From the NCBI RefSeq assembly GCF_000027125.1, contig NC_017626.1: a stretch of 64,000 nucleotides of DNA; one strand, 5' to 3'. Source of the stretch: Escherichia coli 042. Lineage in GTDB: Bacteria > Pseudomonadota > Gammaproteobacteria > Enterobacterales > Enterobacteriaceae. Shown in pieces: positions 6,434 to 17,851 of this stretch. Made by a program: the position numbers and the translations under genes. Position 1 is the first letter of the stretch. Each line of letters starts with the position of its first letter. The notes below the pieces were generated by a model. That model did no database searches, was not told where the DNA came from, and saw only the letters and a list, made by a program, of their open reading frames with translations.

Positions 6434-7771
6434 TTAATCTTTGCTTATTGGTGCATCTAAGGGATACGGGTTTTTATGCAGCCGGTTGTAATTCAGCGCA
6501 TACATGGCGGTGATGACCATCAGGGTGACAAATGACCACATAACCTCTTTCGCCCCGGACCCCACCACGGCCCAGATGCAGTAGAGGAAGGCAATGGTAG
6601 TAACTGCCAGATATACCGGGCGTGCTTTACCAAAGTGGCCGTGGCCGAGCAGCAGTAACGCCGCACAGGTGTAAAGATATGGCACCAGTGTAAAGATGAC
6701 CGAGACGGAAGAAACCAGACCGAACTCTTTGGTCGCGTTTGGTGAAATGCTGCTGAGCTGGAAGATGGTCATCAAAATACCGACGATAATCAGCCCCGCC
6801 ACTGGCGTACCCGCTTTATTAACACGGGCAAAAATCGGTGGGAACAGTCCGTCATCGGCAGCGGCTTTCGCCGTTTGACCCGCCAGCAACGTCCAGCCGC
6901 CCAGTGAACCTAAGCAACCCGCAGCTGCGCAGAAGGAAACAATGGCCCCGGCGGTGTCACCCAACGCCATCCGTGCGGCATCACCGAATGGCGAGGCAGA
7001 AACGCGCAGTGCGGCATTAGGGATCATCCCCATAATCGCGGTGGTGGAGAGTACATAGCAAACGGCGGCAATCAATACCCCACCAATGGTGGCGATAGGG
7101 ACGTTGCGTTTCGGGTTTTTCACCACACCTGCGGCAACGGAGGCACTTTCCACACCGATGAACGACCACAGCGTAACGTTAAGGGTACTTTGAATTGCAC
7201 CGAAGGTGCCCAGGCCGCTGACGTTCCATGCCGCCATATAGGTTTCACCACGGAACCAGAACCAGCCAAATACGGCAATCCCGACGATGGGGATCAGCGC
7301 CAGCACGGTGGCAACGGCCTGCACGCGGGTGATCATTTTCGGACCGACAATATTCAGCAGGACGAAGATCCACAGCACCACGACGCAGGTGATGGTTAAT
7401 ACCAATGGATCTTTCAGAATCGGGAAGAAGTAACTTAAATAACCTACGCCAATGACCACCATGGCGATATTGCCGATCCAGCAGGCCAGCCAGTAGAGGA
7501 CGTTGGTTTGATAACCGAGAAACGGCCCAAAGCAGCGACGGGCGTAAGCGTAAGAACCACCAGGACTTGGGTCGAGGAACGACATTTTGGCGTATACCAT
7601 CGAGAGCCCCAGCGCACCGATAATCGTCACCAACCATCCATAAATGGCAATCCCGCCAGTGGAGGCCAGGTTTGCAGGTAACAGAAAAACACCTGACCCC
7701 ATAATATTCCCCGACACCATCAGGGTGACGGGGATTAAGCCCACTTTGTGAGCATCAGCATCCGAAGACAT
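6434..7771 (-). CDS. adiC: Arginine:agmatine antiporter AdiC (445 aa)
   Basis: APC-family transporter; sequence and length match. Confidence 0.95.
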
Positions 7772-9004: not shown

Positions 9005-11272
9005 TTACGCTTTCACACACATAACGTGGTAAATACCGTCAATAATTTCTGTCCCTTCTGTTTCGTGTTCAAATCCAGGGAAATGATGGTCCCAGGATTG
9101 CAGCGAGCGTAAATAACTTACTTGCGGACTGTTTTTATCGCCGAAGTTTTCACCAGACAGCAGCATCGGGATTCCTGGCGGATACGGGATAACTGAGTTT
9201 GCCGCGATGCGTCCTGGCAGATTTTCAATGGATACCAGTTCGACATTGTTGTCGACAATCGCGTTGTACGCTTCACGCGGGGTGATTTCCGCCACCGGCA
9301 GGCCGGAATAGGCTTCGTTCAACCGTGCGCCAGGGTTGTTTTCTTTCAGCCAGGCAAACATGGTGTCACCCAGATCGTGAATCCCCATGTTCGCGTAAGT
9401 GTCAGGATATTGTTCAACAAGTTCCGGCATCACCTGCGCCAGCGGTGTGTTGGCGTCATAGTGGCGTTTGAAGGAGCAAAGGGTGTTAACCAGAGTCCCC
9501 CATTTCCCACGGGTTATGCCCATAGAGAACAGGAACATGATTTGGAAGTCAGTGGTGCGGGTAGGCACAATGCCGTGGCGACCAAGCCAGGCAGTGACCA
9601 GCGCCGCCGGAACACCGGTTTCTTCCAGTTCACCATCTTCACCCATTCCCGGAGCAAGGATGCTGACTTTAATCGGGTCGAGCATACTCCAGTTATCCGG
9701 AATATCTTTGAAGCCGTGCCAGCTTTCGCCCGGATGCATGACCCAGCAGTCCTGAACGGTGGTCAGCAGTTTGGTTGGTGCGTCAGCAAAGTCATAGGTT
9801 TTGCCGGTTTGTGGGTCGGTGACGACTTCTTTGTTCCACGGTTTGAAGAACCAGCTACCGTCAGCGGTGAACTCTTTATACAGCCGCGCCATCGCCTGAC
9901 GGAAATCAACCGCTTCGTCGATCACTTCCTGGGTCAGTGACAGGCCGCTGTTGCCGTCCATCATCGACACTGCCACGTCGTTGGATGCACAGATGGCATA
10001 CAGCGGGGAGGTGGTGGCATGCATCATGTAGGCCTGGTTGAAGCGGGAGAAGTTAATCGCCCCACGACCTTCACGTACATGAATATAAGAGGCCTGTGAC
10101 AGTGCATTCAGTAGTTTGTGGGTGGAGTGGGTGGCGAAAACGGTAGGACCGTTGTGATCGCCAGGTTCGCCGCGCATGGCATAGTGATCGGCATAGATCG
10201 GGTTGAAACGTGCATAGCCGTACCAGGCTTCGTCAAAGTGCAGACGATCGGAGGTTTTTTCCAGCAGATCCTGCGCTTCTTTAGCGTTATAACACACGCC
10301 GTCATAGGTACAGTTGGTCACTACGCAGTAAGACGGTTTTTGCCCGGCTTTGTCTTTAGTCAGCGGGCTTTCACTGATTTTCTTCTGCAAGGTTTCAGGT
10401 TGCATTTCCTGCGGATAGATTGGCCCGATAATGCCGTAGCGGTTGCGGCTTGGCACCATGTAGACCGGTTTCGCGCCCGTCAGCATCAAGCCTTGTTCGA
10501 TGGATTTATGGCAGTTACGGTCAACGACCACGACATCGTTATCGGTCATGCAAGCCTGCATGATGGTGCGGTTAGAGCCGGAAGTACCGACGACTACCGA
10601 CCAGGAGCGATCGGCACCAAATACGCGTGCGGCATATTTTTCGCTTTCGCCAAATGCGCCAGTATGGTCAAGCAAAGAACCGAGGGAAGTTCGTTCGATG
10701 CCCATGTCGGTGCGGAACAGATTTTCACCATAGAAGTCATGGTAGAAACGTCCGGCGGGTGTTTTGGTAAAACCAACGCCACCCTGGTGGCCTGGCGCTG
10801 CCCAGGAATATTCATGGATGTCGCTATATTTCATCAGCGCGCTGAACAGTGGCGGCAACAGTTGCTGGCGGTAGCGGGTCATCGCGGCAACGGCGCGTCC
10901 GGCGATAAAGTCGGCGGTATCTTCCAGAATCCAGGCGAATTCATCGACAAGCTCCAGCAGATCCCGGTCCATTGCGGCGAGGGCTTTTTCCCGATCGCCC
11001 AACAGGAAGACCGGCACGTTTTGTTGGCGCTCATGAAGCTTACCGATCAATTGTCTGACGTTTTGATGTTCGTCCGGATGTTCCATTTGATAGCTGAACA
11101 TCAGGCAGTCAATGGCTTCGTTTGAAGAGAGAATGGCAAAACCATCATCAAAGGAGGTGGATTTAATCACGGTAACATTTTGCTGGCTTAAAGCATCTGC
11201 CAGACGCTCAACGGCGTTACCGACCCAGGTGTCTTGATGGAGAAACTCGCTTTCAACAATTAATACTTTCAT
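9005..11272 (-). CDS. adiA: Biodegradative arginine decarboxylase AdiA (755 aa from MKVLIVES)
   Basis: PLP-dependent Orn/Lys/Arg decarboxylase. The ORF has two N-terminal Met (756 aa). Confidence 0.95.
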   Translation of the reverse strand: MKVLIVESEFLHQDTWVGNAVERLADALSQQNVTVIKSTSFDDGFAILSSNEAIDCLMFSYQMEHPDEHQNVRQLIGKLHERQQNVPVFLLGDREKALAAMDRDLLELVDEFAWILEDTADFIAGRAVAAMTRYRQQLLPPLFSALMKYSDIHEYSWAAPGHQGGVGFTKTPAGRFYHDFYGENLFRTDMGIERTSLGSLLDHTGAFGESEKYAARVFGADRSWSVVVGTSGSNRTIMQACMTDNDVVVVDRNCHKSIEQGLMLTGAKPVYMVPSRNRYGIIGPIYPQEMQPETLQKKISESPLTKDKAGQKPSYCVVTNCTYDGVCYNAKEAQDLLEKTSDRLHFDEAWYGYARFNPIYADHYAMRGEPGDHNGPTVFATHSTHKLLNALSQASYIHVREGRGAINFSRFNQAYMMHATTSPLYAICASNDVAVSMMDGNSGLSLTQEVIDEAVDFRQAMARLYKEFTADGSWFFKPWNKEVVTDPQTGKTYDFADAPTKLLTTVQDCWVMHPGESWHGFKDIPDNWSMLDPIKVSILAPGMGEDGELEETGVPAALVTAWLGRHGIVPTRTTDFQIMFLFSMGITRGKWGTLVNTLCSFKRHYDANTPLAQVMPELVEQYPDTYANMGIHDLGDTMFAWLKENNPGARLNEAYSGLPVAEITPREAYNAIVDNNVELVSIENLPGRIAANSVIPYPPGIPMLLSGENFGDKNSPQVSYLRSLQSWDHHFPGFEHETEGTEIIDGIYHVMCVKA

Positions 11273-11470
11273 CATTGCTTACCCGGTTATGAAGGAATCT
11301 TCGTTGCGGGCAAGTATCTTCCGGCCTTTTCGGGCTGTAAAGCGCGTGAAAAACAAACATTTTTGAAATATTTGTTTTTATAAACAATATGTTATGTGAT
11401 TATTTTAAATTATTTTCACTGCTTATTATCGACGGCTAAACTATTTTTTTGGCTGATACTGATATCGTCT

Positions 11471-12379
11471 TTAGCCGGGAAACGTCTGGCGGCGCTGTTG
11501 GCTAAGTTTGCGGTATTGTTGCGGCGACATGCCGACATATTTGCCGAACGTGCTGTAAAAACGACTACTTGAACGAAAGCCTGCCGTCAGGGCAATATCG
11601 AGAATACTTTTATCGGTATCGCTCAGTAACGCGCGAACGTGGTTGATGCGCATCGCGGTTATGTACTGTTTCATCGTCAATTGCATGACCCGCTGGAATA
11701 TCCCCATTGCATAGTTGGCGTTAAGTTTGACGTGCTCAGCCACATCGTTGATGGTCAGCGCCTGATCATAGTTTTCGGCAATAAAGCCCAGCATCTGGCT
11801 AACATAAAATTGCGCATGGCGCGAGACGCTGTTTTTGTGTGTGCGCGAGGTTTTATTGACCAGAATCGGTTCCCAGCCAGAGAGGCTAAATCGCTTGAGC
11901 ATCAGGCCAATTTCATCAATGGCGAGCTGGCGAATTTGCTCGTTCGGACTGTTCAATTCCTGCTGCCAGCGGCGCACTTCAAACGGGCTAAGTTGCTGTG
12001 TGGCCAGTGATTTGATCACCATGCCGTGAGTGACGTGGTTAATCAGGTCTTTATCCAGCGGCCAGGAGAGAAACAGATGCATCGGCAGATTAAAAATCGC
12101 CATGCTCTGACAGGTTCCTGTATCTGTTAGTTGGTGCGGTGTACAGGCCCAGAACAGCGTGATATGACCCTGATTGATATTCACTTTTTCATTGTTGATC
12201 AGGTATTCCACATCGCCATCGAAAGGCACATTCACTTCGACCTGGCCATGCCAGTGGCTGGTGGGCATGATATGCGGTGCGCGAAACTCAATCTCCATCC
12301 GCTGGTATTCCGAATACAGCGACAGCGGGCTGCGGGTCTGTTTTTCGTCGCTGCTGCACATAAACGTATCTGTATTCAT
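11471..12379 (-). CDS. melR: AraC-family melibiose operon activator MelR (302 aa)
   Basis: Length, divergent orientation to melA and sequence match. Confidence 0.95.
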   Translation of the reverse strand: MNTDTFMCSSDEKQTRSPLSLYSEYQRMEIEFRAPHIMPTSHWHGQVEVNVPFDGDVEYLINNEKVNINQGHITLFWACTPHQLTDTGTCQSMAIFNLPMHLFLSWPLDKDLINHVTHGMVIKSLATQQLSPFEVRRWQQELNSPNEQIRQLAIDEIGLMLKRFSLSGWEPILVNKTSRTHKNSVSRHAQFYVSQMLGFIAENYDQALTINDVAEHVKLNANYAMGIFQRVMQLTMKQYITAMRINHVRALLSDTDKSILDIALTAGFRSSSRFYSTFGKYVGMSPQQYRKLSQQRRQTFPG

Positions 12380-12529
12380 GGATGGCTCTCTTTCCTGGAA
12401 TATCAGAATTATGGCAGGAGTGAGGGAGGATGACTGCGAGTGGGAGCACGGTTTTCACCCTCTTCCCACAGCGGCGAGGGGAGCGTCCGAGCATCATGAG
12501 GCCGAAAACTCTGCTTTTCAGGTAACTTA

Positions 12530-12584
12530 TTCCCATAAACTCAGATTTATTGATGCTTCACGTAGGATCTGAGTTTATGGGAAT
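12530..12584. promoter_or_regulatory. melAB/melR control region: inverted pair of MelR-type 18-bp sites (tCCCATAAACTCAGAtt ... aTCTGAGTTTATGGGaa)
   Basis: 15-bp perfect inverted repeat carrying the CCCATAAACTCAGA MelR-site core, between melR and melA. Confidence 0.6.
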
Positions 12585-12661
12585 GCTCAACCTGGAAGCC
12601 GGAGGTTTTCTGCAGATTCGCCTGCCATGATGAAGTTATTCAAGCAAGCCAGGAGATCTGC

Positions 12662-14017
12662 ATGATGTCTGCACCCAAAATTACATTTATCGGCGCTGGT
12701 TCGACGATTTTCGTTAAAAATATTCTTGGTGATGTGTTCCATCGCGAGGCGCTGAAAACGGCGCATATTGCCCTGATGGACATTGATCCCACCCGCCTGG
12801 AAGAGTCGCATATTGTGGTGCGCAAGCTGATGGATTCAGCAGGGGCCAGCGGCAAAATCACCTGCCACACCCAACAGAAAGAAGCCTTACAGGATGCCGA
12901 TTTTGTCGTGGTGGCATTTCAGATTGGCGGTTATGAACCTTGCACGGTGACTGATTTCGAGGTCTGTAAGCGGCATGGTCTGGAACAAACCATTGCCGAT
13001 ACGTTGGGGCCGGGCGGTATTATGCGCGCGCTACGTACCATTCCGCATCTGTGGCAAATTTGCGAGGACATGACGGAAGTCTGCCCCGATGCCACCATGC
13101 TCAACTACGTTAACCCAATGGCGATGAATACCTGGGCGATGTATGCCCGCTATCCGCATATCAAACAGGTAGGGCTGTGCCATTCGGTGCAGGGAACGGC
13201 GGAAGAGCTGGCGCGTGACCTCAATATCGACCCGGCTACGCTGCGTTACCGTTGCGCAGGTATCAACCATATGGCGTTTTACCTGGAACTGGAGCGCAAA
13301 ACCGCCGACGGCAGTTACGTGAATCTCTACCCGGAACTGCTGGCGGCTTATGAAGCAGGGCAGGCACCGAAGCCGAATATTCATGGCAATACTCGCTGCC
13401 AGAATATTGTGCGCTATGAAATGTTCAAAAAGCTGGGCTACTTCGTCACGGAATCGTCAGAACATTTTGCTGAGTACACACCGTGGTTTATTAAGCCAGG
13501 TCGTGAGGATTTGATTGAGCGTTATAAAGTACCGCTGGATGAGTACCCGAAACGCTGCGTCGAGCAGCTGGCGAACTGGCATAAAGAGCTGGAGGAGTAT
13601 AAAAACGCCTCCCGGATTGATATTAAACCGTCACGGGAATATGCCAGCACAATCATGAACGCTATCTGGACTGGCGAGCCGAGTGTGATTTACGGCAACG
13701 TCCGTAACGATGTTTTGATTGATAACCTGCCACAAGGATGTTGCGTGGAAGTAGCCTGTCTGGTTGATGCTAATGGCATTCAGCCGACCAAAGTCGGTAC
13801 GCTACCTTCGCATCTGGCCGCTCTGATGCAAACCAACATCAACGTACAGACGCTGCTGACCGAAGCCATTCTTACGGAAAATCGCGACCGTGTTTACCAC
13901 GCCGCGATGATGGACCCGCATACTGCCGCCGTGCTGGGCATTGACGAAATATATGCTCTTGTTGACGACCTGATTGCTGCCCACGGCGACTGGCTGCCAG
14001 GCTGGTTGCACCGCTAA
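12662..14017 (+). CDS. melA: Alpha-galactosidase MelA (451 aa)
   Basis: NAD/Mn-dependent GH4 enzyme; N-terminus MMSAPKITFIGAGS and length match. Confidence 0.95.
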   Translation: MMSAPKITFIGAGSTIFVKNILGDVFHREALKTAHIALMDIDPTRLEESHIVVRKLMDSAGASGKITCHTQQKEALQDADFVVVAFQIGGYEPCTVTDFEVCKRHGLEQTIADTLGPGGIMRALRTIPHLWQICEDMTEVCPDATMLNYVNPMAMNTWAMYARYPHIKQVGLCHSVQGTAEELARDLNIDPATLRYRCAGINHMAFYLELERKTADGSYVNLYPELLAAYEAGQAPKPNIHGNTRCQNIVRYEMFKKLGYFVTESSEHFAEYTPWFIKPGREDLIERYKVPLDEYPKRCVEQLANWHKELEEYKNASRIDIKPSREYASTIMNAIWTGEPSVIYGNVRNDVLIDNLPQGCCVEVACLVDANGIQPTKVGTLPSHLAALMQTNINVQTLLTEAILTENRDRVYHAAMMDPHTAAVLGIDEIYALVDDLIAAHGDWLPGWLHR

Positions 14018-14664
14018 GGGGTTATCGCTTCCGGCGCTCTGGTTATCAAGCCAAAGCGCCGTAGCTGGCGGCAATGCAAGCGAGCGAGGAATATCACCGT
14101 CGTTAATGCGCCAAGCAGCGCGCAGAACATATCGGATTGCGTGTCCCACTGGTCGCCCTGGGTGCCGAGAAAATCATCCGCTCCCTGACCCATTGCCAGC
14201 GCCGCCCACCACTCGATTAATTCATACATCGCGCTTATCGCCAGCGCCACGCAACAGACCAGAAACGCCACCATTTTACGTCCGCGAACGTACATCCCGC
14301 GCACAAGGATCTCACGTGCCACCAGTGCAGGCACCAGCCCCTGGAAAAAATGCCCCAGCTTGTCATACGGATTACGGCTCAACCCCAGCCATTCCTGCAC
14401 CTCAAAACCAACGGGGACTTTCGCGTAGGTGTATTGTCCGCCGACCATCAGGATGATGGCGTGAAAGAAAATGAGCGTATAGAGCAGCGGCGTTAACGGA
14501 TAACGTCTGGCGGTGGCAAGCAGTAGCGGCACGACAATAATCACCGGTGTCACTTCCATCAGCCAGGTGAGTTTGTCATGGGCCGAAATGCCGGTATAAA
14601 TCAGGATTAACGTTAGCGCCAGTGCGCCGGTGTTAAGAATTAACGGCTTGAGTGTGCGGGTCAT
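14014..14664 (-). CDS. yjdF: Inner membrane protein YjdF (216-aa ORF)
   Basis: Multi-TM protein. Its stop overlaps the melA stop by 4 nt, so melB (expected between them) is absent. Confidence 0.85.
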   Translation of the reverse strand: MTRTLKPLILNTGALALTLILIYTGISAHDKLTWLMEVTPVIIVVPLLLATARRYPLTPLLYTLIFFHAIILMVGGQYTYAKVPVGFEVQEWLGLSRNPYDKLGHFFQGLVPALVAREILVRGMYVRGRKMVAFLVCCVALAISAMYELIEWWAALAMGQGADDFLGTQGDQWDTQSDMFCALLGALTTVIFLARLHCRQLRRFGLITRAPEAITP

Positions 14665-14786: not shown

Positions 14787-16433
14787 TTACTTAGTGCAGT
14801 TCGCGCACTGTTTGTTGACGATTTGCTGGAAGAAGTCGTTACCTTTGTCATCGACCAGGATAAACGCCGGGAAATCTTCTACTTCGATTTTCCAGATAGC
14901 TTCCATACCCAGCTCTGGATAAGCGACGCATTCCAGATGCTTGATGCTCTGCTGCGCCAGTACCGCCGCCGGACCGCCGATGCTACCGAGGTAGAAGCCG
15001 CCGTGTTTATGACACGCGTCGGTAACCTGCTGACTGCGGTTACCTTTCGCCAGCATGATCATGCTGCCGCCGTGGGATTGCAGCAGATCCACGTAGGAGT
15101 CCATACGACCTGCGGTAGTTGGGCCAAGTGAACCTGATGGATAACCGGCAGGGGTTTTCGCCGGACCCGCGTAGTAGATCGGGTGATCTTTGATGTACTG
15201 CGGAAGTTCTTTACCGGCGTCAATCAGCTCTTTCAGCTTGGCGTGTGCAATATCTCGACCCACAATAATGGTGCCGGTGAGCGACAAACGAGTGGAAACC
15301 GGATATTGCGAAAGCTGGGCGAGGATCTCTTTCATCGGGCGGTTAAGGTCGACCTTCACCGCTTCGCCTTCACCGGCCTGACGCAGTTCTTGTGGAATGT
15401 ACTGGCCTGGATTGTGTTCCAGTTTTTCGATCCAGATACCTTCGCGGTTGATTTTCGCTTTAATGTTACGGTCAGCGGAGCAGGAGACGCCCATGCCTAC
15501 CGGGCAGGATGCGCCGTGACGTGGCAGACGGATAACGCGAATGTCGTGCGCGAAGTATTTACCGCCAAACTGCGCGCCAAGACCGAGTTTCTGGGCCTCT
15601 TCCAGCAGTTCCTGTTCCAGCTGGACATCGCGGAACGCCTGACCATGTTCGTTCCCTTCCGTCGGCAGCTCATCATAATAGTGAGCGCTTGCTAACTTGA
15701 CGGTTTTCAGGTTGGTTTCCGCAGACGTACCGCCAATCACAAACGCGATATGGTACGGCGGGCAGGCTGCCGTACCGAGGGTACGCATTTTCTCAACGAG
15801 GAAGTTTTTCAGTTTGCCGGGAGTCAGCAGAGCTTTGGTTTCCTGGTAGAGATAGGTTTTGTTGGCAGAGCCGCCGCCTTTAGCGACACAGAGGAATTTG
15901 TACTCATCGCCATCTACCGCGTACAGGTCGATTTGCGCAGGCAGGTTAGTGCCGGTGTTGACCTCTTTGTACATGTCCAGCGCCGCATTCTGTGAATAGC
16001 GCAGGTTATCTTCGATATAGGTGTTATAGACGCCTTTCGACAGCGCTTCTTCATCACCGCCGCCGGTCCACACGCGCTGACCTTTTTTACCGACGATGAT
16101 CGCGGTGCCGGTGTCCTGGCAGGTCGGCAGCACGCCTTTGGCGGCGATTTCGGAGTTTCTTAAGAATTGCAGCGCCACGTACTTGTCGTTTTCGCTGGCT
16201 TCTGGATCTTGAAGAATAGCCGCGACCTGTTTCTGGTGTGCCGGGCGGAGCATGAAAGAAGCGTCGTGAAAGGCTTGCTGCGCCAGCAGAGTCAGGGCTT
16301 CTGGTTCCACTTTCAGGATGGTTTCACCGTCGAAGTCGGCAACGCTAACGTAATCGGAAGTGAGTAGATAGTATTCGGTATTGTCTTTCCCCATCGGGAA
16401 AGGTGCCTGGTAGATAAAGGGTTTGTTTGACAT
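14787..16433 (-). CDS. fumB: Class I fumarate hydratase FumB (548 aa)
   Basis: Fe-S fumarase; sequence and length recognised. Confidence 0.95.
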
Positions 16434-16510: not shown

Positions 16511-17851
16511 TTATAAGAACCCGTACATCGCGGCGAAGATCCAGCCGAAGACGCACGATACGCTCACACCAATCAACCCCGGCAGAATAAAGCTGTGGTT
16601 AATGACGAAGCGACCGATGTGGGTGGTGCCGGAACGGTCAAACTGAATCGCTGCCAGATCGCTCGGATAAGTCGGCAGGATGTAATAACCGTAGCAAGCC
16701 GGTGCTGAAGCCACGATGTATGCCGGATCAACGCCGATCGCCAGCGCGACCGGAACAATCGCCGCCAGCGCCGCAGCCTGAGAGTTTACAAACTTGGAAA
16801 CCAGCAGCAGAACAATGGCATAGGCCCACGGATACTCTTTCACCATTTCGCCCAGTACGCCCTGAATTTCAGACATATGTGCACCGAACATGGTTTCTGC
16901 CATCCATGCGATACCGTACACCGCCACGATGGCGATCATACCGGAACGGAAGACTTCGTTTTTTGAGATAGACGCGGGATTGGTTTTGGTCAGGATAATA
17001 ATCAGCGCCCCGGTCAGCAGCATAAACATCTGAATAACCAGTACCATCGACAGCGGTTTGCCACCGAAGGATGGACGCAGGTCCGAATCAGCACCAAGAA
17101 GGGCGACTACAGCGATTGCCCCGAGGAAAATCCACATTGCCAGCCAGTTGCTTTTCGGCAGTTTTTTATCCAGCAGCGTCGCGGTATCACCGTAAACATA
17201 CTCACGGTTTTCCGGTACGGAGATGAATTTCTGGAACTCTTCGTCTTTATCCAGATCTTTACCGCGGAACCAGCTGAAGATACCGATCGCCAGGATACCG
17301 ATTAACGTCGATGGAATGGTGATTGCCAGCAGGTCGAGGAACTCAAGATGGCGACCATCAAAGGTGACATTACCCAGCATCGCAACCAGAGACACGACTG
17401 CAACCGACACCGGACTGGCGATAATCCCCATCTGTGCACCAATAGAACTTGCCGCCATCGGACGTTCCGGACGGATATTGTTCTTAATAGCAACGTCGTA
17501 GATGATCGGCAGAATGGTGTAAACCACATGACCCGTACCGCAAAGAATGGTCAGCGTACAGGTCACAAACGGCGCGACAATTGAGACATATTTCGGGTTA
17601 CGGCGCAGCAGCTTCTCGGCAATTTGCAGCATGACATCAAGACCGCCCGAAGCTTGCAAGGTCGCCGATGCCGCCACCACCGCAATGATAACCAGCATGA
17701 CATCAACCGGTGGTTTACCTGGCTGAAGGTGGAAGACGAAGACCAGAATGACCAGACCGATACCGCCTAATAAACCCAGCGCGATACCACCCTTTCTGGC
17801 ACCATAAAACAGACATATCAGTATTATGATAAGTTGGATAGTAAATAACAT
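16511..17851 (-). CDS. dcuB: Anaerobic C4-dicarboxylate antiporter DcuB (446 aa)
   Basis: Dcu-family transporter; length matches. Confidence 0.95.

Follow-up and report, generated by a model that had tools for sequence, protein, structure and literature searches.

Known mel loci and the layout of the window

The mel locus of Escherichia coli K-12 (L001) consists of melA, a 102-nt spacer, melB (1422 nt), a 138-nt spacer and a yjdF gene coding for 209 amino acids, and the gene order melA-melB-(small PQ-loop gene)-yjdF is found in Kluyvera and several Citrobacter species. Strains without melB have been described previously: Table 5 of Touchon et al. (2009, PMC2617782) places melB, coding for the melibiose permease, among the functions absent from group B2 strains, and Table 1 of Fang et al. 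(2018, PMC5996543) places melibiose among the model-predicted growth substrates separating B2 from the other phylogroups. The deletion analysed here affects the same gene at the same locus, and the B2 reference strains CFT073, Nissle 1917, ATCC 25922 and SE15 carry its scar; the difference is that these tables give gene content or model-predicted growth, and the junction is not described there. With the loss of melB in B2 already known, what is new here is the junction at nucleotide level, its occurrence in several Escherichia species, a nested deletion in E. albertii, evidence of cassette-like exchange and a counter-example to the predicted phenotype.

The window, that is, the whole stretch of 64,000 nucleotides that was analysed, is colinear with the K-12 locus over melR, the regulatory region, melA, yjdF, fumB and dcuB, with 97-99.6% identity. 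Its open reading frames place adiA at 9005-11275 (minus strand) and an intact melR, coding for the AraC-family activator of the mel promoter, at 11471-12379 on the same strand (302 amino acids; Pfam HTH_AraC and HTH_18); the nucleotide sequence of melR is 99.6% identical to K-12 over the stretch present in L001. The divergent melR-melA regulatory region (12380-12661) has 282 nt as in K-12, 272 of them identical, with zero indels. The intact melA gene (12662-14017, plus strand, TAA at 14015-14017) codes for 451 amino acids with 99% identity to K-12 MelA over residues 1-451 and carries full-length Pfam Glyco_hydro_4 and Glyco_hydro_4C domains (E=8e-82 and 4e-58); both domains, together with the identity to the K-12 enzyme, predict a GH4 alpha-galactosidase. 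The genes yjdF (14014-14664), fumB (14787-16433) and dcuB (16511-17851) follow, all on the minus strand. The 651-nt yjdF frame codes for a 216-amino-acid form of this DUF2238 membrane protein (PF09997 at residues 42-182, E=1.1e-58), and the same 651-nt coding sequence is annotated by RefSeq in E. coli NT1F34.

The upstream part of the MelR-dependent operon, namely melR, the divergent regulatory region and melA, is present, and the melAB operon is reduced to melA with no downstream melB for cotranscription. Searches with K-12 MelB (tblastn) and with the 1662-nt K-12 interval (blastn) gave no melB match in the whole 64-kb window.

The melA-yjdF junction and its 23-nt scar

The convergent melA and yjdF genes meet tail to tail and their coding sequences overlap by 4 nt (CTAA, 14014-14017), the yjdF stop TAG being the complement of 14014-14016 and the last sense codon of YjdF, Pro216, the complement of 14017-14019. 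The first-pass annotation had described melB as missing and the two stop codons as overlapping, and the coordinates it gave were exact. Unlike K-12, the window has no REP/hairpin spacer between the convergent genes, and a terminator scan revealed no terminator-like sites within 14000-14050. The same 4-nt overlap is common to all melB-less Escherichia loci examined.

Alignment with K-12 mapped both endpoints. The two sequences part at the end of the melA stop codon and align again from GGTTATCAAGCC (window 14041) onwards, which places the right deletion endpoint in the last codon of yjdF. A segment of 1668 nt in K-12 (L001 2336-4003), made up of both spacers, melB, and codon 209 and the stop of yjdF, is replaced by the 23-nt deletion scar or filler GGGGTTATCGCTTCCGGCGCTCT (14018-14040). 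The C-terminus of YjdF reads ...GLITG* in K-12 and ...GLITRAPEAITP* in the window; the eight codons of the derived tail RAPEAITP (residues 209-216; 14017-14040, minus strand) replace Gly209 of K-12 and lie outside the DUF2238 domain. Tails of other species differ from it (RAPEATTP, KAPDAITS and RAPEALNL). In the window the melA stop is directly followed by the 23-nt scar (14015-14040) and the 216-aa YjdF has a RAPEA-type tail, the features by which the allele is recognised.

YjdF of the melB-positive C. amalonaticus ends in ...QLIAG*, encoded by GGA TAA as in K-12, and in other melB-positive relatives YjdF has 205-210 amino acids. Since the Gly-stop ending is common to K-12 and C. amalonaticus, the 209-aa YjdF is taken as ancestral and the 216-aa form as derived; from the same comparison of sequences the presence of melB is, like the 209-aa-type YjdF, the ancestral state. 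The first-pass annotation had read the 216 amino acids, against 209 in K-12, as the product of a deletion endpoint within the 3' end of yjdF that created a new C-terminus. The open reading frame, the K-12 locus and the ancestral ending in C. amalonaticus all agree with that reading, the C-terminus of K-12 YjdF being different and the melB-containing order ancestral.

The origin of the filler was sought in the deleted DNA. The filler's best match in the entire deleted K-12 interval, 9/9 with the 3' arm of the post-melA hairpin, was not significant (p about 0.2). The fillers of the Escherichia loci align with the loop and 3' arm of the conserved post-melA hairpin, e.g. GGCGTAA..CCGGCGCT, with shuffle p values of 0.004-0.05 for a search limited post hoc to the melA-melB spacers of K-12 and Kluyvera. 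It is likely, on the strength of these alignments, that the 23-nt filler is a remnant of the hairpin after melA. The scars compared were those of NT1F34, Nissle, E. ruysiae, E. whittamii, Escherichia sp. E1V33, SCPM-O-B-8794 and E. albertii. The initial claim that no trace was left of melB or of the spacers is accordingly upheld for melB within the 64-kb window, but probably not for the spacers, because the filler resembles the post-melA hairpin.

A 13-nt match, TCTGGTTATCAAG, between the right edge of the scar and the 3' end of the Citrobacter PQ-loop gene was spotted by eye; its right-hand part is conserved yjdF coding sequence, and the match was treated as a coincidence.

Distribution, age and exchange of the deletion

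The contiguous melA-yjdF junction was found in 1263 of 5426 complete E. coli genomes (about 23%; 1260 with a 141-nt junction probe) and K-12 melB DNA in 4136, the two sets adding up to about the total. As melB DNA occurs in only 4136 of the 5426 genomes, melB has not been relocated in the scar-bearing ones. Across the junction, ten genomes are identical to the window for 81 nt and many more are 1 base off; the B2 strain SE15 differs by 1 nt in 81. The independent assemblies of Nissle 1917, CFT073 and ATCC 25922 are mutually 100% identical over melA-yjdF-fumB and have no melB. An assembly or collapse artefact in the window was considered and is discarded outright, since the junction occurs in over a thousand finished genomes, these three assemblies included.

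For the core of the window (1-25000), no complete E. coli genome exceeds 99.0% identity. A private recent deletion in the strain or its clone would be in keeping with so poorly sampled a strain, but we give this explanation next to no credence, because an identical scar is carried by about 1260 complete E. coli genomes, ten of them 100% identical over the 81 nt of the junction, and by five other Escherichia lineages whose flanks show species-level divergence. The view of the deletion as a peculiarity of one strain, implied in the first-pass annotation, is overturned by the survey of this junction in related genomes, and the feature of the window is a real, ordinary, common and already published presence/absence polymorphism.

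A genomic island occupying the right part of the window (39001-64000) carries Ag43 and a type VI secretion system. Its 25 kb recur at 100% identity in E. coli BR1220, HH35 and PO06021 and at 99.9% in 55989, yet only 20 of the 5426 genomes cover 80% or more of it. With a core at most 99.0% identical and an island 100% identical to other genomes, the core lineage looks poorly sampled and the island widely shared. A tRNA scan detected no tRNA genes in the window.

A scan of species-representative genomes, among which E. fergusonii and E. marmotae were not recovered, showed that the deletion endpoints are shared, and the filler is homologous, in E. ruysiae, E. whittamii, Escherichia sp. E1V33 and the divergent 'E. 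coli' SCPM-O-B-8794. Identity to the window is only 90-97% for melA, yjdF and fumB of these four lineages and 88-91% for yjdF and fumB of E. albertii. The filler itself shows 3-9 substitutions in 23 nt across the other Escherichia species. Species-level divergence of both the flanks, whose genes have 88-94% identity to the window in the other species, and the scar indicates that the allele is ancient and not a recent import in those lineages, and the identical endpoints with the same filler in all melB-less Escherichia examined point to a single origin.

E. albertii shares the scar and the 216-aa YjdF with the window but differs by a further deletion of about 2.5 kb that took melR together with melA from codon 1 to about codon 440. 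In window coordinates it is equivalent to 11482-13983, and it leaves the last 34 nt of melA beside the scar, followed by the adiA-proximal end of melR; in E. albertii NBRC 107761 it lies at 6640-6890 of locus L010. E. albertii is mostly melibiose-negative (PMC9145129), a phenotype that the deletion of melR and melA fits.

Recurrent independent deletions at a hotspot, e.g. mediated by the hairpin or by REP elements, have a parallel in Citrobacter. The melB-less Citrobacter (C. youngae group, C. murliniae) have likewise kept melA beside yjdF and lost melB, but their endpoints are different: they have kept a 64-nt spacer with the yjdF-proximal hairpin between the stops of melA and yjdF, and have a YjdF of 210 amino acids ending in ...AN*; the small PQ-loop gene is gone too. 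Judged by these junctions, the Citrobacter losses are events independent of the Escherichia scar, in which the permease and not the enzyme was lost in a second genus. Insertion sequences also interrupt melB or melA in some E. coli genomes, such as an IS5-like ISEc35 within melB (NZ_CP103745.1) and an IS30-like ISApl1 within melA (NZ_CP025048.1). Within Escherichia, however, the endpoints are shared and the fillers homologous at all melB-less loci examined, which independent events would not reproduce, and we therefore hold recurrence at a hotspot to be very improbable as the explanation of the scar.

The melB-less Citrobacter loci are those of sp. Cu233 (L012), C. youngae (L013), sp. wls619 (L015) and C. 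murliniae (L020), with the junction at about 6620-6700. In melB-positive Citrobacter and Kluyvera an ORF of about 84 amino acids lies between melB and yjdF (C. amalonaticus L021, about 6640-6900; also L019, L016 and L025). It matches the Pfam PQ-loop (E=9e-11) and MtN3_slv/SWEET (E=1e-9) families and is, by these domain matches, a candidate SemiSWEET-like sugar carrier adjoining the mel operon; it was absent from all Escherichia loci examined. S. enterica subsp. arizonae (L017) and Citrobacter L011, L014 and L069 have yjdF-fumB-dcuB, but the 6 kb downstream of yjdF gave no match to melA or melB; these loci represent larger or different rearrangements.

Comparison of K-12 with Escherichia sp. 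MOD1-EC7003 (L008) gave 45 differences in 1356 nt of melA, 7 in 1524 nt of the melA-melB spacer plus melB, 25 in 630 nt of yjdF and 56 in 1647 nt of fumB. The melB tract (equivalent to L001 2317-3920) is 99.5% identical to K-12 and melA, yjdF and fumB are 96-97% identical; with flanks differing by about 3.5%, about 53 differences would be expected where 7 were found (Poisson P=3e-15). The low-divergence tract is almost exactly the segment missing from the window, so that melB, too, would move between lineages as a cassette. In terms of nucleotide differences, the pattern indicates a recent recombinational exchange of exactly the indel segment.

At the locus the window is 97.4% (yjdF) and 98.1% (fumB) identical to K-12, compared with 94.9% and 97.3% to Nissle; it differs from the ST73 B2 allele in this respect, and the ST73/Nissle allele is just one divergent variant of the scar locus. 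Scar-bearing E. coli thus differ in their flanks: in the first 200 nt of yjdF the Nissle allele reaches 92-93% identity with both K-12 and the window, and the window 99% with K-12. Movement of both states by homologous recombination would place the scar in locally typical flanks, as in the window. The idea that the window is a unique mosaic of a B2-type scar and a K-12-type right flank was dropped, as the same junction with 0-1 mismatch is common and includes SE15. No B2 typing markers lie within the window.

The annotation of Nissle 1917 (L003 3615-4257, with the same sequence in CFT073 and ATCC 25922) marks yjdF as a pseudogene with a frameshift, and the locus is 8 nt shorter. The 3' 200 nt of the Nissle yjdF are only 92-93% identical to K-12 and the window, near interspecies divergence.

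A different order of events has to be weighed, in which the absence of melB was ancestral in Escherichia, the deletion having preceded the E. albertii split, and melB was later re-introduced as a cassette into non-B2 E. coli. The scar is indeed present and deeply diverged in the most divergent lineages examined (E. albertii, E. ruysiae and E. whittamii), and melB of E. coli is shallow, 4127 of the 4136 copies being at least 99% identical to K-12. In about 1200 melB-positive genomes melA is less than 99% but melB at least 99% identical to K-12, and MOD1-EC7003, with its melB at 99.5% and flanks at 96-97%, shows the same contrast. On the other hand, the K-12 melB region is colinear with Citrobacter and Kluyvera and keeps the ancestral yjdF ending and the melA-proximal hairpin, and within E. 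coli the contrast between melB and melA diversity is small. With only about 76% identity between the melB genes of K-12 and Citrobacter, the donor would itself have had to be a lineage of Escherichia in which melB was never lost. We regard re-introduction as unlikely, though a serious contender. Long retention of an ancestral polymorphism was also considered; it is not cleanly separable from one origin followed by recombination.

Taken as a whole, the data are best explained, in our view with high confidence, by a single ancient deletion scar that is now polymorphic and of which both states have been spread by recombination. One ancient deletion would have taken melB, the gene of the Na+/melibiose symporter, with the spacers on either side of it and the last codon and stop of yjdF, leaving about 23 nt, probably the loop and 3' arm of the post-melA hairpin. 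The deletion would have arisen once in the genus Escherichia and persisted as a presence/absence polymorphism in E. coli, where the roughly 23% of genomes comprise the B2-associated loss and further lineages, and in other species, and YjdF, by reading through the scar, would have gained its 8-residue tail.

Retention of melA and meaning of the polymorphism

Apart from E. albertii with its nested deletion, all melB-less lineages examined have a full-length melA. In pairs of melB-less lineages, e.g. E. whittamii versus E. ruysiae, dN/dS of melA is 0.01-0.03 at dS 0.2-0.48, which indicates that the alpha-galactosidase is still under strong purifying selection. The first-pass annotation had predicted a Mel-negative or reduced phenotype from the missing permease. 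As a rule the Mel-negative prediction fails: ATCC 25922 has the identical melB-less locus and was scored MEL+ on API 20E (PMC11546641, Table S2), this one strain being the source of the genotype-linked phenotype data. Melibiose is also a transport substrate of LacY, and screens for mel-specific fermentation make use of lacY-negative hosts (PMC4308713); isolates of E. ruysiae have been reported to vary for melibiose (PMC12735186). We infer that melB-less strains are not obligately Mel-negative and that LacY would be the route of melibiose in scar-bearing strains; the window itself holds no lac genes. A reduced or condition-dependent melibiose phenotype is possible in melB-less strains. In this scheme melA would have been kept useful by melibiose or other alpha-galactosides entering via LacY or another carrier. 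One may also speculate that loss of any spacer or terminator between the convergent genes could let melibiose-induced melA transcripts run antisense into yjdF.

For annotation and metabolic models these results advise caution, since equating 'no melB' with 'no growth on melibiose', as in the predictions tabulated in PMC5996543, conflicts with the melibiose-positive ATCC 25922. The scar reveals no new system or mechanism; it is a clean and easily typed marker of an old indel polymorphism across Escherichia species and a small worked example of recombination decoupling an indel from its flanks. A broader proposition, to which we assign a little under an even chance, is that of an old cross-species melB polymorphism in which the 1.67-kb segment has been repeatedly removed or restored as a cassette by homologous recombination, its conversion tracts stopping where the heterology begins, and purifying selection has kept melA in melB-less lineages thanks to another carrier for alpha-galactosides. 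If it is true, selection would be acting on the transporter rather than on the pathway.
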